A program made the position numbers and the translations under genes. From Aquificaceae bacterium (lineage in GTDB: Bacteria > Aquificota > Aquificia > Aquificales > Aquificaceae), in NCBI GenBank assembly GCA_037924335.1, contig JAXSMZ010000003.1:32102-96101 (forward strand): a DNA stretch of 64,000 nt, written 5' to 3'. The notes beneath the pieces were generated by a model that did no database searches, was not told the DNA's origin, and was given only the letters and a program-made list of their open reading frames with translations. The stretch's first letter is position 1. Each line of letters starts with the position of its first letter. Below, in pieces: positions 43,955 through 61,461 of this stretch.

Positions 43955-44371
43955 TTATCTTCCTTTTATTCTATCCCTAAAAAGCTCATGGCATGCCATA
44001 CAACCTTGTATCATCTGGGTGTAGCTTTTAAAGGCTTCTTCTTTCTTACCTTCCTTTATAAACTTTATAACATCCCCTGCACCGCCATGAACCTGCCTTT
44101 CAAAGGTTGGCATAAGCTTGGCAAACTCTTCCCTCTTTGATGGGTCTATGTACTTTAAGGGTCCTCCCTTTGGCATGGGATGCTCCGCTATCTCCTTGGC
44201 TCCTTCAATTATCAGCGCATCATTGTTTAAAAGAAATCCTTGAAGCATTTTCAAGGCTGACGTATTTACCATCTGCATCACCTGCTTAAAAGTAAGAGAG
44301 CTTTCCTCCATATGCTCATGGGCAAGCCCAAGGCTAAGGCTCAGAGCAAGAGTAAGTCCTACTTTCCTCAT
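43955..44371 (-). CDS. Periplasmic class II (c'-like) cytochrome c
   Basis: Signal peptide, helical body, C-terminal CMACH..FR. Confidence 0.8.
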   Translation of the reverse strand: MRKVGLTLALSLSLGLAHEHMEESSLTFKQVMQMVNTSALKMLQGFLLNNDALIIEGAKEIAEHPMPKGGPLKYIDPSKREEFAKLMPTFERQVHGGAGDVIKFIKEGKKEEAFKSYTQMIQGCMACHELFRDRIKGR

Positions 44372-50809: not shown

Positions 50810-51154
50810 ATGTGGGGCTTTTTCATTCTCCTATCCCTTATCATATCTTGCAACAGTCCAAAGAAGGGCGTAGAGTTAAAGCCTGAGGAGGTAAAAGAGC
50901 TGTTCAAAACAAGAGGATGCACCGATTGTCATGATAAAGGAAGGGACCTTATAGGTCCATCCTTCATGGAGATAGCCAAGAGATACAAGGAAGAAGGAAA
51001 TGCGGAAAATATACTTTTGAGAAGCCTTAGGGAAGGATCATGCAAAAAATGGAAGGCAAGATGGAAGTGTATGCCACCACAAAGGGTGGAGGAAGAGGAA
51101 GCAAAACACATGATAAAGTGGATACTCACCTTAGAACCACAAAGCTCCCGGTAG
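50810..51154 (+). CDS. Cytochrome c551/c552-like lipoprotein
   Basis: GCTDCH, IGPSF..IA.RY, MPPQ; AGGAGG RBS. Confidence 0.85.
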   Translation: MWGFFILLSLIISCNSPKKGVELKPEEVKELFKTRGCTDCHDKGRDLIGPSFMEIAKRYKEEGNAENILLRSLREGSCKKWKARWKCMPPQRVEEEEAKHMIKWILTLEPQSSR

Positions 51155-53063
51155 CATCATCGTAGGTTACAAGGGTACTCTCCTTAGGGTTTTTGGGTGT
51201 TTCAAACTCAAGCTCTTTTACCTTTTCCTTATGGGCTGTCTCTTCCATCCTTAGCCTTAGTCTTTTCCCTTCAGGTTTTAAAAATATCTCTTCGTAGACA
51301 AAAAGTGAGGCATCCTTCCTTAAGCCCCTTGGGTTAAAAACTTTTGAATAAATCACCTTCCCTTCCAAAAAGACATCCACCTTAACAGGGGACCTCTCTT
51401 TTGCTATAGCCATCTGAGCTTGCATATGCTTTAAGCCCGTACTCTCCTTAGCGATCTCTTTGACTGGGGAGGACCTGTACTTGAAGTTGAGCACTACAAC
51501 AGATTTATCTGTAGGATAGAAGGATATTCTATGGGTTGTGAGCGGGTAAAAGAGGAAAATAGGAAGGGCTAGGACCATAGTTGCCAATGCGTAGTTTATC
51601 TTACCCAATGTTATGATGGTTGACTCTTCCTTGTTTTTGTCTGCCTTTATGAAGACATCTATCTCCTTATCTATTGACTTCACGTAAGGAGCTTCAAGAA
51701 TCAAGACCTTTCCACCTATAACCTTTTTCCTCAAGATAGGTCTTCTTTCCCTTTTATACCTTTCTTCCAACCACTTGTTCCCTTCTCTGAAGTAACAGTC
51801 TTCGTACTCACAGGATACCAGGATAAGACCCTCTAAGCCCAAATTGAGAAGTTCTTCTGCGTAGAGAGTGTTGACAGCACCTATGCATGGAACAGTAAAG
51901 GACAAAAGCCCTTCCCTCTCAGGTATCTGAGCACTAAAGGGACATCTAAAGGCCACATAGAAAGGACTTTCCTTTTCTATTCTTTCCTTTATGCTTTGTA
52001 TAGGAAAGGTAGGTATGTCTATTGCCTTTACACTACAGGATCCCACGCATATACCGCAACCTGCACACTTCCCTTCATCCAATACAGCCTTTTTATCGTT
52101 GTCAAAGCTTCTCATGGTTATAGCTTCATAGGGGCAGTCTATATAACACTGCTCGCATCCTGTACATTTTTCAAAGTCTATATGGGCTGGTGGGTTTCTC
52201 CTTCCCTTTATGAGCCACGGAAACACAAAAAGGAAGGTGAAAAATCCTAAGAAGAGGACCCAGTTTAAGGACATGGGAAGGTACTTGAGCAGAGGATAAC
52301 CAAAGAAGTAAAACCAGTCAAGGCTCATCTCAAAGGGGAGCTTTTCTATACTTGCTGGTGGGTCGCTCTTTGCGGGGAGCAGTATGGAGAGTGCTATAAG
52401 AAGCAAGGTTATGGTTATATAAAGAAATTTAGGAGGTATGAGCCTTGGCCTTGCGTTCCTCATCACATGAACCCAAAGGGTAAAAACTATAAGGATGGTT
52501 AGGGCTATGTGGGCAAAAAGGAGTATTCTAAAAAGCCCACCCAGATACTTTATGTCGCTACCAAGAAAGGCACTCATGAGAACATCTCCAAAGATTGGCA
52601 GAAAGGAAAAGAACTTGGCGGTTAATATACCAACGAGCTGTGCCCTTACGTCCCAAACTAGTATGTAGCCGGATATACCTATAGCTAAAAAGATCAAAAG
52701 AGTAACAATCCCGGTTACCCAAGCTATCCACCTGAACATCCTAAACCTGTCTGTGATGATAACATGGACCATATGGGCTACCGCAGTAAGGATTAGAGCA
52801 TCGGAGGAATATCTATGAATGCCCCTCATAATGTTTCCAAGAAGGCTTTGGGATATAGCCTCAACGGATGCATGGGATGACTTTGGGTCTATGCTGTAGA
52901 AGAAGAAGAGATAAACACCTGAAATTGTATCAATCACCAAAAGGAATATGGCTATGGCGCCAAGATGATAGAGAGGGTTTAGTTTAGAGGAAAAGAACCT
53001 ACTAAGAGTGTAGGAAAGTTTTTGAAAGGCTATGTAAATGGACTGGATACCTATGACTTCCAT
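51126..53063 (-). CDS. Cytochrome b + 2[4Fe-4S] + MvhD/FlpD-like fusion protein
   Basis: RGIHRY/AHMVH/FAHI/WVH heme-b His, LDWFY, CTGCEQC..DCP, CAGCGICVGSC, VPC.G and C...DCYFREG. Confidence 0.85.
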   Translation of the reverse strand: MEVIGIQSIYIAFQKLSYTLSRFFSSKLNPLYHLGAIAIFLLVIDTISGVYLFFFYSIDPKSSHASVEAISQSLLGNIMRGIHRYSSDALILTAVAHMVHVIITDRFRMFRWIAWVTGIVTLLIFLAIGISGYILVWDVRAQLVGILTAKFFSFLPIFGDVLMSAFLGSDIKYLGGLFRILLFAHIALTILIVFTLWVHVMRNARPRLIPPKFLYITITLLLIALSILLPAKSDPPASIEKLPFEMSLDWFYFFGYPLLKYLPMSLNWVLFLGFFTFLFVFPWLIKGRRNPPAHIDFEKCTGCEQCYIDCPYEAITMRSFDNDKKAVLDEGKCAGCGICVGSCSVKAIDIPTFPIQSIKERIEKESPFYVAFRCPFSAQIPEREGLLSFTVPCIGAVNTLYAEELLNLGLEGLILVSCEYEDCYFREGNKWLEERYKRERRPILRKKVIGGKVLILEAPYVKSIDKEIDVFIKADKNKEESTIITLGKINYALATMVLALPIFLFYPLTTHRISFYPTDKSVVVLNFKYRSSPVKEIAKESTGLKHMQAQMAIAKERSPVKVDVFLEGKVIYSKVFNPRGLRKDASLFVYEEIFLKPEGKRLRLRMEETAHKEKVKELEFETPKNPKESTLVTYDDATGSFVVLR

Positions 53064-53226
53064 TGAGTACCTCCTTGTAAATATCTACTTACTATTAATA
53101 TAAGCACTTTATTAAAATTTTATACGTTTTAATTTCACGTTATAATATAATAAATTTAATTGTTGACAACAAAACCATTTAATACTAAACTATTCTTGTA
53201 AGTAACTGCTTACAGGAGGTGAAAAC

Positions 53227-53403
53227 ATGGAGGAAAAGAAGAGAACATCTTTCCTTCAGTTGGTTTTGGATGACTTTATGCTTCTTCTTTTCTTGGGTGT
53301 AACCATCTATGCAGTGTCTTATCTAATCTGGGGACTCATAGAACTCGCCTGGCTTTCCCCCATACCTGCGGAACTAAAGCAATCTCTTATGGGAGGTAAG
53401 TGA
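53227..53403 (+). CDS. Small single-TM subunit (IIa-like) of heme-copper enzyme, 58 aa
   Basis: Below ORF-track cutoff: MEEKKRTSFLQLVLDDFMLLLFLGVTIYAVSYLIWGLIELAWLSPIPAELKQSLMGGK; AGGAGG RBS; ends 1 nt before subunit II. Confidence 0.8.
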   Translation: MEEKKRTSFLQLVLDDFMLLLFLGVTIYAVSYLIWGLIELAWLSPIPAELKQSLMGGK

Positions 53404-53404
53404 T

Positions 53405-53935
53405 ATGGCTCTATTACCGCCCGAAGAAGGATGGTACTTTAAGAAGGTTGCAAAGGACGAGAAGATGTGGATAACCCTAGCCCTGGTTGTGTGCCTTATC
53501 CTCTTCCTCTGGATGATTGTCTGGCACATATACGGAAGGCAGAATCCTTCCTTTACTACCTATAGAACGACTCCTCAGGAGTTTAACGCCTTGGCTACTG
53601 CCTTTATGGAAAAGTATAAGACTGGTGAGATGAACGGAATACCAGTAGTTGAACCATCACCCAACGGTGATGTTTTCCTTGTTGCTAAGATGTGGAGATG
53701 GGAGCCTGTTTTGGTACTCAAAAAAGGACAGGAGTATAGGTTTCATATATCCTCCTTAGATGTTCTTCACGGCTTTTCTCTTCAGCCTGTGAACATGAAC
53801 TTTATGGTCTATCCAGGCTATGACTATGTGCTTACCTTTAAACCCACATCTTCTGGAGAGTTTGCCATAGTGTGCAACGAGTTCTGCGGGATAGGTCATC
53901 ACATGATGATAGGAAAGATCATAGTCAAGGAATGA
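53405..53935 (+). CDS. Heme-copper oxidase superfamily subunit II (CuA)
   Basis: One TM helix; DVLHGF, CNEFCGIGHHMM. Confidence 0.92.
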   Translation: MALLPPEEGWYFKKVAKDEKMWITLALVVCLILFLWMIVWHIYGRQNPSFTTYRTTPQEFNALATAFMEKYKTGEMNGIPVVEPSPNGDVFLVAKMWRWEPVLVLKKGQEYRFHISSLDVLHGFSLQPVNMNFMVYPGYDYVLTFKPTSSGEFAIVCNEFCGIGHHMMIGKIIVKE

Positions 53936-53946
53936 GGAGGTAAACC

Positions 53947-55614
53947 ATGTTTAGGACATGTGATATTACAGGTCTAAAGGTTGATTTGAACGCAGAAAAG
54001 CTTATAAAACTTAATGCAGTCATGGCTGTTGTGTCTCTGCTTGTTGGTGTGATCGCCGCTCTTCTTTTGGTCCTTACAAGATGGCAAGTGGTACATCTTT
54101 TGCCCGTTGAGTGGTATTACAGGATACTTACCCTTCATGGTCTTAACGCCCTTATATTTTGGATCGTATTCTTTGAGATAGCTGGTCTTTACTTTGGTTC
54201 TACCATAGTCTTAAACTCCAGGATGTCCTCTTCCAAGTTTGGATGGCTCTCTTTAATACTTATGGTTCTTGGCTTTCTATTAGTTAACTCCACCATACTT
54301 ACAGGAAATGCGGATGTTTTAATGACCTCTTACGCTCCTTTACAAGCTCACCCTGTTTATTATCTGGGTGTTATACTCTTTGCAGTAGGTGCACTAATAG
54401 GTGTCTTTCTTTTCTTTGCCAACCTTTTGATAGCAAGAAGGGAAAGGACTTATGGAGATAGTTTACCACTTTTTACCTTTGGTCTTGTTGCTGCCGCTAT
54501 AATAGCCACTCTAACCCTTGCCACGGGTGCCATAATATACATTCCCACCCTTCTTTGGTCTTTGGGAATCATAAAAAGCATAGACGCAGGTGTTTATAAG
54601 CTTATCTGGTGGGGTCTTGGACATTCCTCACAGCAGATAAACGTTACAGCTATGATAGCTGTGTGGTATCTTGGAGCTTTTCTTACGGTTGGTGGTACCT
54701 CTATAAATGAAAAGGTAAGTAGGTTTGCCTTTGTTTTTTACGTCATAGGTATAAATGTAGCATCTGCTCACCACCTCTTGGTTGACCCAGGACCAAGCCC
54801 AGCTTGGAAGGTCTTTAACACAAGCTACATAATGTACATAGCCGTTCTTGCTTCTATGATACACGCCTTTGCAGTTCCATCGGCGGTTGAATCAGCTCAA
54901 AGGAGAAGAGGTTTTACCAAGGGCCTCTTTGATTGGCTAAAGAACGCGCCTTGGGGTAATCCTGCATTTTCTGCAGTCCTTTTATCTATCATCCTATTTG
55001 GTTTTATAGGCGGTGTGACTGGTGTGGTTAACGGTATGGAGCAAACCAATATAATAGTCCATAACACCCTTTCCATACCGGGACACTTCAAGGGAACTGT
55101 GGTCGGTGGAACCACCTTAGCCTTTATGGGTGCCACTTACTACCTTATACCCCTTGTGTTTAGAAAGCGCATCTCTTTCTTTGGCCTTGCAAAGGTACAG
55201 CCTTGGGTCTTTGGCATAGGAATAGCCATATTGGCGGTATCTATGTACATTCTTGGAGCCTTTGGAGTTCCAAGAAGGCACTACGATATTACCTTTTCCG
55301 GCGGACCCTTCACCTACACCTTTAACCCTGCGGTAGACTTCTTCTGGGTTCTCTTTGCCGTAGGTGGCATATTGGCGGTTATAGGTGCTTTAATGTGGAT
55401 ACTTGTAGTGGTTTTCTCTGTCTTCTTCGGTGCTCCTTTAAGAGGCCCTCAAGATATGCAACTTCAGATAGCGTCCCCTCCACCCCCTGCCAAAGAAAAC
55501 CATGGCTTTGAGGCACCTGGAACCCTCACACTTACCCTTCTCTTTATGGGAGTTTTCCTCATATTCCTACTTCTCAACTGGGGATGGCTTGCAGCTATGT
55601 GGGAGGTAAAATAA
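53947..55614 (+). CDS. Heme-copper superfamily subunit I, eNOR-like (putative nitric oxide reductase)
   Basis: LTLHG, GHSSQQIN (no cross-linking Tyr), SAHH, GHFKG, GVPRR; lies between nos and nir clusters. Confidence 0.8.
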   Translation: MFRTCDITGLKVDLNAEKLIKLNAVMAVVSLLVGVIAALLLVLTRWQVVHLLPVEWYYRILTLHGLNALIFWIVFFEIAGLYFGSTIVLNSRMSSSKFGWLSLILMVLGFLLVNSTILTGNADVLMTSYAPLQAHPVYYLGVILFAVGALIGVFLFFANLLIARRERTYGDSLPLFTFGLVAAAIIATLTLATGAIIYIPTLLWSLGIIKSIDAGVYKLIWWGLGHSSQQINVTAMIAVWYLGAFLTVGGTSINEKVSRFAFVFYVIGINVASAHHLLVDPGPSPAWKVFNTSYIMYIAVLASMIHAFAVPSAVESAQRRRGFTKGLFDWLKNAPWGNPAFSAVLLSIILFGFIGGVTGVVNGMEQTNIIVHNTLSIPGHFKGTVVGGTTLAFMGATYYLIPLVFRKRISFFGLAKVQPWVFGIGIAILAVSMYILGAFGVPRRHYDITFSGGPFTYTFNPAVDFFWVLFAVGGILAVIGALMWILVVVFSVFFGAPLRGPQDMQLQIASPPPPAKENHGFEAPGTLTLTLLFMGVFLIFLLLNWGWLAAMWEVK

Positions 55615-56876
55615 TGATCCTTTTCCTCTTCCTCTCCCTTCTTACCTTATTCCTCGCTGGTGTCTTTGGACTTCTGATAGCCCTTACAAGAACTCCTATG
55701 TTAAAGCTTCTTAACTCACCAGAGCTCTTCTATCACTTCTTAGTGGGCCATGTGACCTTTTCCATAACAGTTTGGCTCATGACCTTTGGCATAGCCTTTT
55801 GGAATTACAAGGAAGGCAGGAAGGGGAAGGTAGCACCTCCAGCCATCCTATCTGGTATGCTCCTCCTTTCCCTCTCCTGTCTTTTTCCCTATGGACAGCC
55901 CCAGCTCAACAATTATATACCAGTTATAGAAAATCCCATTTTCTACACAGGGCTCACCCTTTTCTTTTTAGGGTTTTCATCAGAAGTGGTTCTTAGGCTA
56001 CGGAAAGCTATAAAGAACCTTCTGTCTCAAAACACACAGACACAGCTACTGTCTCTATCGGTTATCTTTGGCTTCTTCACAGTATTGTCCCTTCCTGTAT
56101 CCTTACTACTTGTGAAAGGTGAAGGAAAGCTATACTTTGAAAGACTCTTTTGGATACCTGGTCACCTTCAACAGTTCATGTACACAGCCCTTATGCTATG
56201 CGTTTGGCATGAGCTTTTGAAGAAAAACTCAGAAAAACAAGTATCAAGCCCTATTATGAATTCAGCAAACCTCCTTATGTTCCTTTTCTCATTGACCCTC
56301 CTTTATGGCTACTTTACAGACATGCTCTCTGATGGTTTTAGGCTTCTTATAACACTTTCCTTTGGAATAGGTTTGGGTGTGCCCGTCTTCATACACACCT
56401 TCTATGTGCTAAGGAATATGAGGATAAACAAGGATGTATCCACCCTATCCTTGGTCTTCTCCATGAGTGTGTACTATGTGGGCGAATTTATAGCCTACGG
56501 CGGTATGCAAAGCGACCTTAGAATACCTGCCCATTATCATGGTGTTGTGTCTGGGGTAACCGTAGCCTTTATGGGGCTCACCTACTATATGCTAAAGGAG
56601 AGGCTTGGCTTTGTGAGTTGGGAAAGGTTTGCCAGACTTCAGCCTGCCCTTTTTGGATTTGGTATAAACCTTTTGGTGATTGGCTTTTATATTGCCGGCC
56701 TCTTAGGTGCGCCCAGAAAGACCTATGGCTTTGAGTATGTACAAAAGGCTGAGGTGCTTCTGGCTTTGAACGTGATGGGTATGGGGAGCTTGCTTGCTGC
56801 GGCAGGCGGATTACTCTTCCTCTTTTACTCCTTTACATCCCTTATGAAGGTGTACAGACATGGTAAAGCTTTTTAG
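55614..56876 (+). CDS. Divergent subunit-I-like paralog
   Basis: LVGHV, WIPGHLQQF, PAHYHG, GAPRK; no helix VII HH. Confidence 0.7.
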   Translation: MILFLFLSLLTLFLAGVFGLLIALTRTPMLKLLNSPELFYHFLVGHVTFSITVWLMTFGIAFWNYKEGRKGKVAPPAILSGMLLLSLSCLFPYGQPQLNNYIPVIENPIFYTGLTLFFLGFSSEVVLRLRKAIKNLLSQNTQTQLLSLSVIFGFFTVLSLPVSLLLVKGEGKLYFERLFWIPGHLQQFMYTALMLCVWHELLKKNSEKQVSSPIMNSANLLMFLFSLTLLYGYFTDMLSDGFRLLITLSFGIGLGVPVFIHTFYVLRNMRINKDVSTLSLVFSMSVYYVGEFIAYGGMQSDLRIPAHYHGVVSGVTVAFMGLTYYMLKERLGFVSWERFARLQPALFGFGINLLVIGFYIAGLLGAPRKTYGFEYVQKAEVLLALNVMGMGSLLAAAGGLLFLFYSFTSLMKVYRHGKAF

Positions 56877-57576
56877 TCTCCTTTTTATACTCCTTTCCTT
56901 CTCCTTTCCCAACCTTTTGCCCGATGAGAAAAGGACCATAGGTACCTATGTGCCTGATATAAGGCTTCAAGACCATGAGGGAAAGGTTTACAGCCTAAAG
57001 GACTTTGCCCAAGGCAAAGTGCTCATAATAAACCCCATATATACCAAATGTTCCTCCGCCTGTCCTGTTATGACAGAAGAGTTAAACAAGGTCATAAAAG
57101 ACCTTAAGGAGGATGTGAAAGTCCTTTCCATCACCTTTGATACCTCGGATAGCCTATTGGACCTCAAAAAGTTCAGAGAAGTCCATAATCTTCCAAGCAA
57201 CTGGATTGTGGTAAGGAGCGATGAGGTAGCTAAGCTTCTAAAAGCTATAGACTATAAATACAGATATGATGAAGGGCTTAAAGAGTTTGAGCATCCCAAC
57301 CTCTATGTGATCATCACACCCTCTGGAAAGGTGTCAAGGTACATATACGGTATAAGCCCTAAGCTTAAAGATCTAAAGCTTGCTGTCCTTGAAGCAAAAA
57401 AAGAAGGTACAAGCCTTAATCCTGTAGAGAGCTTCTGGCTAAGGTGTTTTAGATATAATCCAGAAACAGGCACCTATCAGATAGACTGGTTCTTTGTCTT
57501 TGATGTGATGGGAGGACTTACTACTTTTCTTGTTGTTCCTCTTTTGGTTTGGGGTAAGTCCTTGTTGCGCTTATGA
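56860..57576 (+). CDS. SCO/SenC copper chaperone
   Basis: YTKCSSACP, SITFD, F.HP, C-terminal TM. Confidence 0.9.
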   Translation: MVKLFSLLFILLSFSFPNLLPDEKRTIGTYVPDIRLQDHEGKVYSLKDFAQGKVLIINPIYTKCSSACPVMTEELNKVIKDLKEDVKVLSITFDTSDSLLDLKKFREVHNLPSNWIVVRSDEVAKLLKAIDYKYRYDEGLKEFEHPNLYVIITPSGKVSRYIYGISPKLKDLKLAVLEAKKEGTSLNPVESFWLRCFRYNPETGTYQIDWFFVFDVMGGLTTFLVVPLLVWGKSLLRL

Positions 57577-59367: not shown

Positions 59368-60992
59368 TGATGCTTCCTCTTCTGAGCATGATCTTTTTCT
59401 CCCTCTCCTTTGGAGGGGAAGAGCTTTATAAAAAGTACTGTTCTTCCTGCCACGGAGAAAACAGACTTGGGAAAAGCGCACCTCCTCTTTTCCCCCATTT
59501 TTTAATGTCCAAATCTGATGAACATCTTTATCAAGTAATAAGAGAAGGCACTGTTGGTATGCCAAGCTTTGAACATCTGAAGGACGATGAGGTTAAGGCC
59601 ATCGTTGAGTTCATTAAAAAACCCATAGATGAGAAGGAACTAAGCTGGGAAGATAAAAATATAAAGGAAAGTGAGGAAGTCTTGAACCTTCAAAAGATAA
59701 AAGTCAAAGACCTCAAAGACTACACCCTGGCGGTAGAAAGGGGTAAAAATCTCCTTTGGGTTATGGAAGGAGATAAAGTACTTACTAGATTTTTCTTCTC
59801 TGGTGTTCACGGAGGTATCAAGTTCTCTAAAGATGGGGATGCTTACATACCTTCAAGGAGCGGGTACATCGGTAAGTACTCGCCACAGGATGGAAAACTA
59901 AAGAAAGTAAGAGCTTGTATATATCTGAGAAACATAGCTCTCTCCTTTGACGAAGGGCTTGTTGTAGCTTCCTGCTGGTTACCCCCCTCTTTGGTCCTTT
60001 TTGATAAAGACCTCAACCTCCTTGATATAAAGAGAGTGGAAGGGAAGGTAAACGCAGTCTATGAACTGCACACAAAGAAGGGCTTTATCTTTACTTTTAG
60101 AGAGAGGCCTTATGTTGGACTCTTGGATGTGAAGAACCATAAGATAATTTATAAAGAGCTTGACACTACTTTAGAGGACTTTACATTAGACCCTCTCGAG
60201 GAGTATCTGATAGGAACTGCAAAAGAGGGGCTAAGGATTTATTCCTTAGAGAACTTAAGGCTCATAAAAGTCCTAAGAACACCCGGACTTCCCCATCTTG
60301 CCTCGGCTTACTTTTGGTATTCGGGGGGGATCTTTTACTTTGCAACTCCCGTTATAAAAAAGCCTGTGCTGTCTGTATGGAAGGCTTACGACTGGAAGCA
60401 TATAAAGGATGTATCCCTTGATGGAGATGGTTTTCTCGCAAGAAGCAACTACGGTACCCCTTACATTTGGGTGGATGAATCTTCAGATGCTTTGGTCCTT
60501 CTTGACAAAAGAAGCCTTGATATAAAGAGAGTAACGCCACTTGTTGGAAAAAGGGTTACGCATACGGAACTCTCTGGCAATGGAAGGCTTGCATACGTGA
60601 GCCTTTACGATAAGGATGGGGCTTTGGTGGTCTACGACGGTGTAACTCTGAAAAAGCTAAAGGAGTATCCCGCAAGCTTTCCCGCTGGGAAGTACAACTT
60701 TTTTAACAAAAGCAGGAGCTTTGACCCCGCCCAGCTTGGCTATCAGGTGTTTATGGAAAAGTGTTGGGGATGCCACCATACCACAGAGCAAGCCTTTGGA
60801 CCACCGCTAAAATGGTCCGCCCAGAAAAGAGATAAGGCTCTCATAATAGCGCAGATACTTGACCCAGAGAATACCCATAAGCTCCTAGGATATTCAGAGA
60901 ATGCCATGCCCCGCATAGACCTAAAAGAGGAGGAGCTAAAAGCCCTAATAAGCTTTATGGAGGCGTTAAAGGATGGCTGGATGGATCGATAG
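59367..60992 (+). CDS. nirN: NirN-like protein with additional C-terminal cytochrome c domain
   Basis: N-terminal CSSCHG..RLG, HGG.KFS, PHL, P.GKYN propeller, second CWGCH. Confidence 0.8.
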   Translation: MMLPLLSMIFFSLSFGGEELYKKYCSSCHGENRLGKSAPPLFPHFLMSKSDEHLYQVIREGTVGMPSFEHLKDDEVKAIVEFIKKPIDEKELSWEDKNIKESEEVLNLQKIKVKDLKDYTLAVERGKNLLWVMEGDKVLTRFFFSGVHGGIKFSKDGDAYIPSRSGYIGKYSPQDGKLKKVRACIYLRNIALSFDEGLVVASCWLPPSLVLFDKDLNLLDIKRVEGKVNAVYELHTKKGFIFTFRERPYVGLLDVKNHKIIYKELDTTLEDFTLDPLEEYLIGTAKEGLRIYSLENLRLIKVLRTPGLPHLASAYFWYSGGIFYFATPVIKKPVLSVWKAYDWKHIKDVSLDGDGFLARSNYGTPYIWVDESSDALVLLDKRSLDIKRVTPLVGKRVTHTELSGNGRLAYVSLYDKDGALVVYDGVTLKKLKEYPASFPAGKYNFFNKSRSFDPAQLGYQVFMEKCWGCHHTTEQAFGPPLKWSAQKRDKALIIAQILDPENTHKLLGYSENAMPRIDLKEEELKALISFMEALKDGWMDR

Positions 60993-61461
60993 CATATCCC
61001 AGATAAGAAGACCCCATTTGGGTAAGGATGTGCCCATCCTTGTGTTCAGAGCCTTTAGGGTATTTTCTGGTATATACCTTGAGGATACCTTAGGACAAAA
61101 GGGAGCTTCAGCCCTTATTCAGAACGCAGGAAGGGAGTTTGGAAAGGAAGTGGGTGAAAGGCTAAAGCATGAGGATTTAGACAGGTACATTATGAATGTG
61201 GCTGACTTTGTTAAAGACATGAAGGTAGGACTTTTAATACCCGTTGAAATGAACAAAGAGAAGCTTGTGGTAGCTCTTGACGAATGCATAACTTGTTCTG
61301 GCATGTCCAATATAGGAAAGAAGATATGCCACTTTGAGGCTGGCTTCGTGGCAGGGATAGTGGAAAGCTATCTAAACAAAAGGGTAAGGGCTTACGAGGG
61401 CAAGTGCAACGCCAATGGAGACAACATATGCGAAGTGGTAGTGGAGCTCAACTATGCTTAG
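60973..61461 (+). CDS. V4R-domain protein in nir cluster
   Basis: ECITC, CHFEAG...G, E.KC...G...C. Confidence 0.82.
   Translation: MAGWIDSISQIRRPHLGKDVPILVFRAFRVFSGIYLEDTLGQKGASALIQNAGREFGKEVGERLKHEDLDRYIMNVADFVKDMKVGLLIPVEMNKEKLVVALDECITCSGMSNIGKKICHFEAGFVAGIVESYLNKRVRAYEGKCNANGDNICEVVVELNYA

Follow-up and report, generated by a model that had tools for sequence, protein, structure and literature searches.

The subject of this analysis is a divergent gene block that encodes a putative nitric oxide (NO) reductase of the eNOR family and, on the opposite strand, a 645-residue cytochrome b/iron-sulfur (Fe-S) fusion protein. It lies in a 64,000-nucleotide stretch of DNA from an Aquificaceae bacterium (GenBank assembly GCA_037924335.1, contig JAXSMZ010000003.1, positions 32,102 to 96,101), hereafter the window. 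The main finding is that the fusion is co-inherited with eNOR across four phyla, namely Aquificota, Nitrospirota, Bacteroidota and Proteobacteria. The eNOR family is already known from published work, including for Hydrogenobacter, and for one member biochemistry has shown that NO is reduced whereas O2 is not (Murali et al., 2024, PMC11214002); what is new is the breadth of its cytochrome b/Fe-S partner.

Among 178 Aquificota genomes, 30 carry the fusion, 29 carry eNOR, and 28 carry both (25 of these on one contig). Both genes are present in 28 of the 31 positive genomes, and in the three discordant ones the sequence breaks off at a contig end, with a fragment of eNOR next to the fusion in G031 and similar interruptions in G065 and G032. 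In a sample of 301 Chitinophagales genomes, an identical set of 11, one of them the centre genome, carries fusion and eNOR, adjacent in every case. In a Nitrospirota class sample, for which only six fusion candidates per genome were scored, an identical set of 10 out of 201 genomes carries both, four of them known beforehand and three with the two genes unlinked on the genome.

I also surveyed individual loci, comprising the best 80 of 505 and the best 80 of 468 matches, a sample that leaves out distant homologues and in which related genomes are not independent. Subunit I lies within 10 kb of the fusion in 75 of the 80 genome loci; for four more it is encoded at another place in the genome, and in the fifth (L008) the contig ends 147 bases before the fusion. 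This last contig is filed under a Bathyarchaeota name, but its fusion is 86% identical to that of the window and is accompanied by the same nos genes, and it is probably mis-binned bacterial DNA. In the metagenome loci, found with the proteobacterial form of the fusion, the eNOR motif is present in 48 of 80, and in 46 of the 50 that extend at least 3 kb upstream; the four without it include one frameshifted eNOR (L117) and a second copy near a contig end (L111), the others being L109 and L110. A preliminary description of this DNA had proposed co-occurrence across genomes as a check on the pairing, which passes it in all of these samples.

The fusion gene (window positions 51126–53063, reverse strand) was studied with Pfam and NCBIfam searches, ligand conservation, AlphaFold2 and Foldseek. 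Pfam identifies cytochrome b (residues 21–200), Fer4 (293–349) and FlpD (389–440) domains. The heme b ligands are H83, H97, H185 and H199, within cytochrome b helices A–F; two [4Fe-4S] motifs span C300–C310 and C333–C343, and MvhD-like [2Fe-2S] cysteines are found at positions 374, 393, 418 and 423 (C374, C393, C418, C423), where the Pfam score is over cut-off and MvhD structures are matched. All 16 ligands (four heme His, eight ferredoxin Cys, four MvhD Cys) are invariant in the 42 homologues that were aligned, from 120 listed of 495 found, as are R80, Y133 and D249, the acidic residue of the PEWY-like motif. The heme His and Cys ligands are retained in the proteobacterial forms. The AlphaFold2 model (pLDDT 85.6) and hydropathy place helices A–F first, followed by the Fe-S domains, one further transmembrane (TM) helix and a beta-sandwich, and the best Foldseek matches are bc1 cytochrome b. 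The domain composition given in the preliminary description (a cytochrome b, two [4Fe-4S] motifs, an MvhD/FlpD-like Cys domain, and a C-terminal TM plus soluble domain) is therefore confirmed, as is its PEWY-like LDWFY, which aligns with the PEWY of the genome's own PetB.

Relative to this PetB, the fusion lacks the Qi His/Asp and helices G and H, its Qo Trp-Gly is altered and PEWY has become LDWF (the positions of the Qo and Qi sites are those I assume from bc1 numbering), and the chain passes from helix F into the Fe-S domain. The C-terminal sandwich has no cofactor, with only three invariant columns, none of them Cys, His or Met; it has no PDB match at E ≤ 0.001 and matches only unnamed Atlas clusters. 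In Proteobacteria, the last helix and the sandwich form a separate gene of ∼170 amino acids. From the homology with bc1, the Fe-S part is probably cytoplasmic, and the sandwich periplasmic. As described previously, no Rieske or c1 gene is adjacent in the window; none of the 80 related loci has a Rieske label, and the genome's bc1 is separate, on contig C2. The named relatives of the fusion are Aquificaceae.

The eNOR operon faces the fusion, on the forward strand. Subunit II (53405–53935), recognized by Pfam as COX2, has CuA ligands H122, C157, E159, C161, H165 and M168, invariant in nine of nine sequences. Subunit I (53947–55614) possesses the active-site His trio and the high-spin heme His (H226, H275, H276 and H380). 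In its WGLGHSSQQ motif, Gln230 lies four residues after the helix-VI His, so that H226-S-S-Q-Q230 aligns with the H-P-I-V-Y of ba3, and the earlier remark that the active-site Tyr is missing (GHSSQQ) is correct. Gln in place of Tyr is diagnostic of eNOR (PMC8756737). The His-Tyr cross-link of B-family O2 reductases is thus not found in subunit I, in contrast to the genome's true ba3 on contig C11, which has HPLVY. The K-channel residues Q230, Y241, S303, H306 and E(II)19, the last being the channel-entry residue in subunit II, are in register with Q245, Y256, S318, H321 and E(II)21 of the R. marinus enzyme (Dataset S1, PMC11214002). Identity of subunit I is 41–70% to Gln-type and 26–29% to Tyr-type sequences, and its best solved-structure match is ba3.

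The low-spin heme positions of subunit I are H64 and K382, with Lys382 instead of a second His. Of the 75 loci where subunit I was matched, 70 have this motif and the other five yielded no motif to read, and His/Lys ligation has been mentioned for some eNORs (PMC11214002). Because the Gln for Tyr, the K-channel residues and the CuA subunit II all match, the sequences support the assignment of subunit I to the eNOR family, as a His/Lys-heme variant, and the block likely encodes an enzyme that reduces NO to nitrous oxide (N2O); here the preliminary assignment has been borne out residue by residue. A His/Lys eNOR, annotated as a cytochrome oxidase, is also found on a Thermus plasmid (L101, NZ_LR027520.1), beside two nitrite-reductase-like genes and with neither an SCO gene nor the fusion within 8 kb. 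That the fusion could be specific to the His/Lys type is ruled out, since Defluviimonas has the fusion with a His/His enzyme and the Thermus His/Lys enzyme lacks it nearby.

The genome is 99.94% complete, and gives seven COX1-family matches: two A-type, one ba3, the eNOR, two COX1-like paralogs and one NorB. The NorB gene lies on contig C2 beside a c-type NorC, and its best PDB matches are NorB (E 1e-88), so this norCB pair rules out eNOR as the sole NO reductase of the genome. The preliminary description, which had suggested looking for norCB, was right that no norB or qNOR is in the window, where the whole-genome COX1 search matches only subunit I and the COX1-like gene. Its proposal that the block supplies the NO-reduction step stands as far as the enzyme's identity is concerned, but is too strong because the cNOR is also present. 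The two enzymes are listed together for H. thermophilus and H. hydrogenophilus (Dataset S8, PMC11214002), and NorB is matched in 14 of the 29 eNOR-positive relatives, many of which are incomplete genomes, and not in the other 15. A full bc1 operon is also found on C2, and ctaA/ctaB-like genes are present in the genome, all named from sequence resemblance.

How the fusion serves eNOR can be only tentatively proposed. The reading that I favour, although I would put it somewhat short of probable, is that eNOR reduces NO to N2O and that the fusion is a transmembrane wire, carrying electrons outward from cytoplasmic donors and keeping eNOR reduced and turning over. Electrons from NAD(P)H or ferredoxin would enter through the MvhD-like [2Fe-2S] and the two [4Fe-4S] clusters, which would occupy the place of the lost Qi site, pass to heme bH and then heme bL, and leave at the remodelled Qo pocket to a periplasmic-side acceptor (a quinone or cytochrome c) that would in turn reduce CuA; alternatively, the acceptor may be eNOR itself. 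Since both a Qi site and a Rieske protein are missing, the simplest reading is such a linear outward wire. Electrons from NADH or ferredoxin run downhill in this direction. For the window organism, the direction of flow, the donor and acceptor, and any physical contact with eNOR are what I infer from these features.

In relatives, the fusion is accompanied by NAD(P)H modules of two types, a cytochrome b-[2Fe-2S]-FAD/NAD paralog in L112 and L111, and a NuoF-like gene adjoining the fusion in L190 and L191. The preliminary description had left a choice between electron feeding and support of heme modification, and because of these modules, feeding fits better. Each of these lineages has a pair of cytochrome b paralogs, which would be compatible with a dimer. 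The Nitrospirota operon was pieced together from two genomes (L190:4922-8779 and L191:94-7749), in the order nirK-like, eNOR, fusion, NuoF-like, second fusion, rhodanese-like and COX1-like gene. A bolder version, which I consider unlikely, is that most eNORs are half of a respiratory machine that would use a cytochrome b dimer without a Rieske protein to link NAD(P)H or ferredoxin directly to the reduction of NO; bifurcation based on quinone might also let this reaction drive the formation of cytoplasmic reductant.

A number of observations weigh against the outward wire. The R. marinus enzyme was purified as two subunits and is active with artificial donors (PMC11214002). The full bc1 provides an ordinary electron route, a cytochrome c is built into the one subunit II scanned from Bacteroidota, and the window locus has no gene for an NAD(P)H module, with one NuoF-type match elsewhere in the genome. 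Locus L110 has a 5′-truncated fusion, and the 8 kb upstream of it contain no eNOR motif. Of 12 plasmid records that match at the eNOR level, 11 (10 from Thermus and one from Thermomicrobium) have no fusion on the plasmid, the corresponding chromosomes not having been searched. The counts of co-inheritance also take related genomes as they come, so that kin in them do not represent independent cases. Nor does every eNOR need the fusion.

Three other explanations have to be weighed against the outward wire. The same wire could serve the assembly or repair of eNOR in a CcoG-like manner, through copper or SCO thiol reduction, support of heme modification, or rescue of nitrosylated centres, which I regard as possible but rather doubtful. 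The fusion adjoins SCO in most loci, others have ctaB, ctaA or the COX1-like gene nearby, and hemerythrin and NnrS-like genes follow it in some. There is also a precedent in CcoG, a 4Fe-4S cupric reductase for oxidase assembly that serves cbb3 (PMC8267372), and purified eNOR is active without the fusion (PMC11214002). However, two cytochrome b paralogs and a dedicated NADH module look built for flux, and the invariant columns of the last domain include no copper-binding motif.

A reversal of the flow, with quinol oxidized at a Qo-like site, one electron going to eNOR and NO and the other inward to NAD+ or ferredoxin, has been proposed for Ferrigenium (bioRxiv 10.64898/2026.01.22.701106), and the invariance of R80, Y133 and D249 and the NAD modules of relatives are in keeping with it. 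I find it distinctly unlikely, as no Rieske or c1 high-potential branch was seen (0 of 80 loci), the Qo Trp-Gly is lost, and electrons passed inward to NAD+ or ferredoxin would have to move uphill in chemical terms as well as against the membrane potential. The module is moreover present in many Chitinophagales, which are heterotrophs with little need for reverse flow. Finally, the enzyme could be mainly an O2 scavenger, or act on another substrate, with the fusion a quinone oxidoreductase merely travelling along. The genome already has a cNOR, and transcripts of an Accumulibacter 'ba3', which I infer to be an eNOR, are little changed by redox state (PMC6446978). Even so this is highly improbable, given that the enzyme lacks the cross-linked Tyr on which O2 reduction depends, that by analogy the R. 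marinus eNOR does not reduce O2 (PMC11214002), that 15 relatives have eNOR without a cNOR match, and that co-occurrence holds even where fusion and eNOR are unlinked.

The operon starts with a gene absent from the preliminary description, a 58-residue open reading frame (ORF; 53227–53403, forward strand) preceded by an AGGAGG ribosome-binding site and predicted to form a single helix; Lys382, the COX1-like paralog and the palindromes described below are likewise additions to that description. In 68 of 80 loci a homologue directly precedes subunit II, and in the seven eNOR loci without it the sequence begins inside subunit II or I. The protein is 53% identical to a Defluviimonas ORF and is likely a subunit IIa-like small subunit, IIa being a label that I borrow, by assumption, from the ba3 oxidases.

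Downstream of subunit I lies a COX1-like paralog (55614–56876, forward strand; 420–430 amino acids, Pfam COX1), referred to as the eNOR 'scaffold', whose likely start overlaps the subunit I stop, its longest ORF running from 55584. In the alignment it keeps three heme-position His and the helix-VI His-x-x-Gln, but has lost the CuB His pair. It is present in 75 of 90 genomes of the family, which rules out that it is eNOR-specific, and an extra, eNOR-linked copy is found in 13; one such second copy lies at L007:965-2251. Of the 15 genomes without it, five were tested and gave no CtaA match, with a CtaA family that was not checked on the window genome's own CtaA, and their COX1 matches are absent or look like C-type or qNOR by frame length only. 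The COX1-like protein is a candidate heme a/o chaperone or modifying enzyme. The operon ends with an SCO/SenC copper chaperone gene (56860–57576, forward strand; Pfam), which adjoins eNOR in most of the 80 related loci surveyed.

The sequence between the divergent genes contains the only two exact matches in the window to GTAAR-N6-YTTAC, a pattern derived from these two sites themselves and found at six sites in the genome. One (53077–53092, reverse strand; GTAAGT-N4-ACTTAC-like) abuts the ribosome-binding site of the fusion, and the other (53198–53213, forward strand) lies ahead of that of the eNOR operon. Between them (53119–53191) are divergent sigma-70-like promoter matches, two forward and one reverse, a weak signal with three found and 1.3 expected in shuffles. 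The palindrome pair is conserved in aligned relatives, and because the same palindrome precedes both genes, this suggests that fusion and eNOR are co-regulated, with the palindrome as a candidate operator. With three mismatches allowed the palindrome is at chance level, so I make no claim for the weak matches ahead of nosC and nirS, and a generic FNR-like box is not enriched.

An ORF check on the window found the fusion, subunit I, subunit II, COX1-like and SCO genes to be real, with coordinates that all agree with those first reported. The flanking clusters were also correctly recognized, with a clade II nosZ upstream (TIGR04246, 965 bits against a cut-off of 625) and nirS downstream (Pfam). 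Within the nir cluster, positions 60973–61461 encode a V4R-domain protein (Pfam) that is retained in several relatives. Divergent from the nos cluster, positions 43955–44371 encode a 138-residue protein with a C-terminal CMACH heme motif and no Pfam or NCBIfam match, which presumably resembles cytochrome c'. No viral relatives were found.

A search of the literature, mostly outside subscription journals, found neither a characterization of the fusion nor a report of its breadth. The closest precedent is a 2026 preprint (bioRxiv 10.64898/2026.01.22.701106), which describes a Ferrigenium straubiae eNOR operon with sco1, a 'scaffold', a cytochrome b-Fe-S-FAD/NAD protein and a cytochrome b-Fe-S protein, and calls these cytochrome b proteins unusual and a possible Ferrigenium marker. 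The breadth of the pairing argues against these genes as markers of iron-oxidizing Ferrigenium. In nature, eNOR ranks among the most common enzymes that form N2O. A partner gene inherited with it in four phyla is a direct target for knockouts and biochemistry in cultivable organisms. If the proposed role is true, a characterized fusion would be a cytochrome b that works without a Rieske protein, with Fe-S clusters in place of the Qi site.

The system can finally be compared with those already known. Loci L112 and L111 show the same layout as the F. straubiae operon, and in these two loci the second protein has an MvhD domain. The window differs in having a single copy without an FAD/NAD domain and with the periplasmic partner fused to it; and, in contrast to a pairing reported from Ferrigenium only, that found here spans four phyla. 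The window enzyme resembles the published eNOR family in having Gln for Tyr, the K-channel residues, a subunit II that binds CuA and a probable kinship with the B family, and adds the cytochrome b/Fe-S partner, the 58-residue gene and the COX1-like paralog, none of which was found mentioned in the portion of PMC11214002 consulted. With bc1 cytochrome b, and with cytochrome b6 plus subunit IV, the fusion has in common the four-helix di-heme core, a His spacing of 14 in both helices and the PEWY-like loop, but it lacks helices G and H, the Qi residues, Rieske and c1, has an altered Qo site, and carries Fe-S domains fused on the inner side. Those domains resemble the C-terminal ferredoxin of HdrA with MvhD (HdrA2-type): residues 293–441 match HdrA2 572–732 (E 2e-18), with the four MvhD Cys kept, although the fusion is membrane-bound and has no FAD domain, and no Hdr genes were seen in the loci read. 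As a membrane Fe-S protein dedicated to a heme-copper enzyme it is also similar to CcoG, which however has no heme b domain. In Sulfolobus SoxABCD, the cytochrome b SoxC is dedicated to a B-type oxidase; the fusion matches SoxC weakly (E 3e-8), but SoxC itself has no Fe-S fusion and serves O2 reduction.

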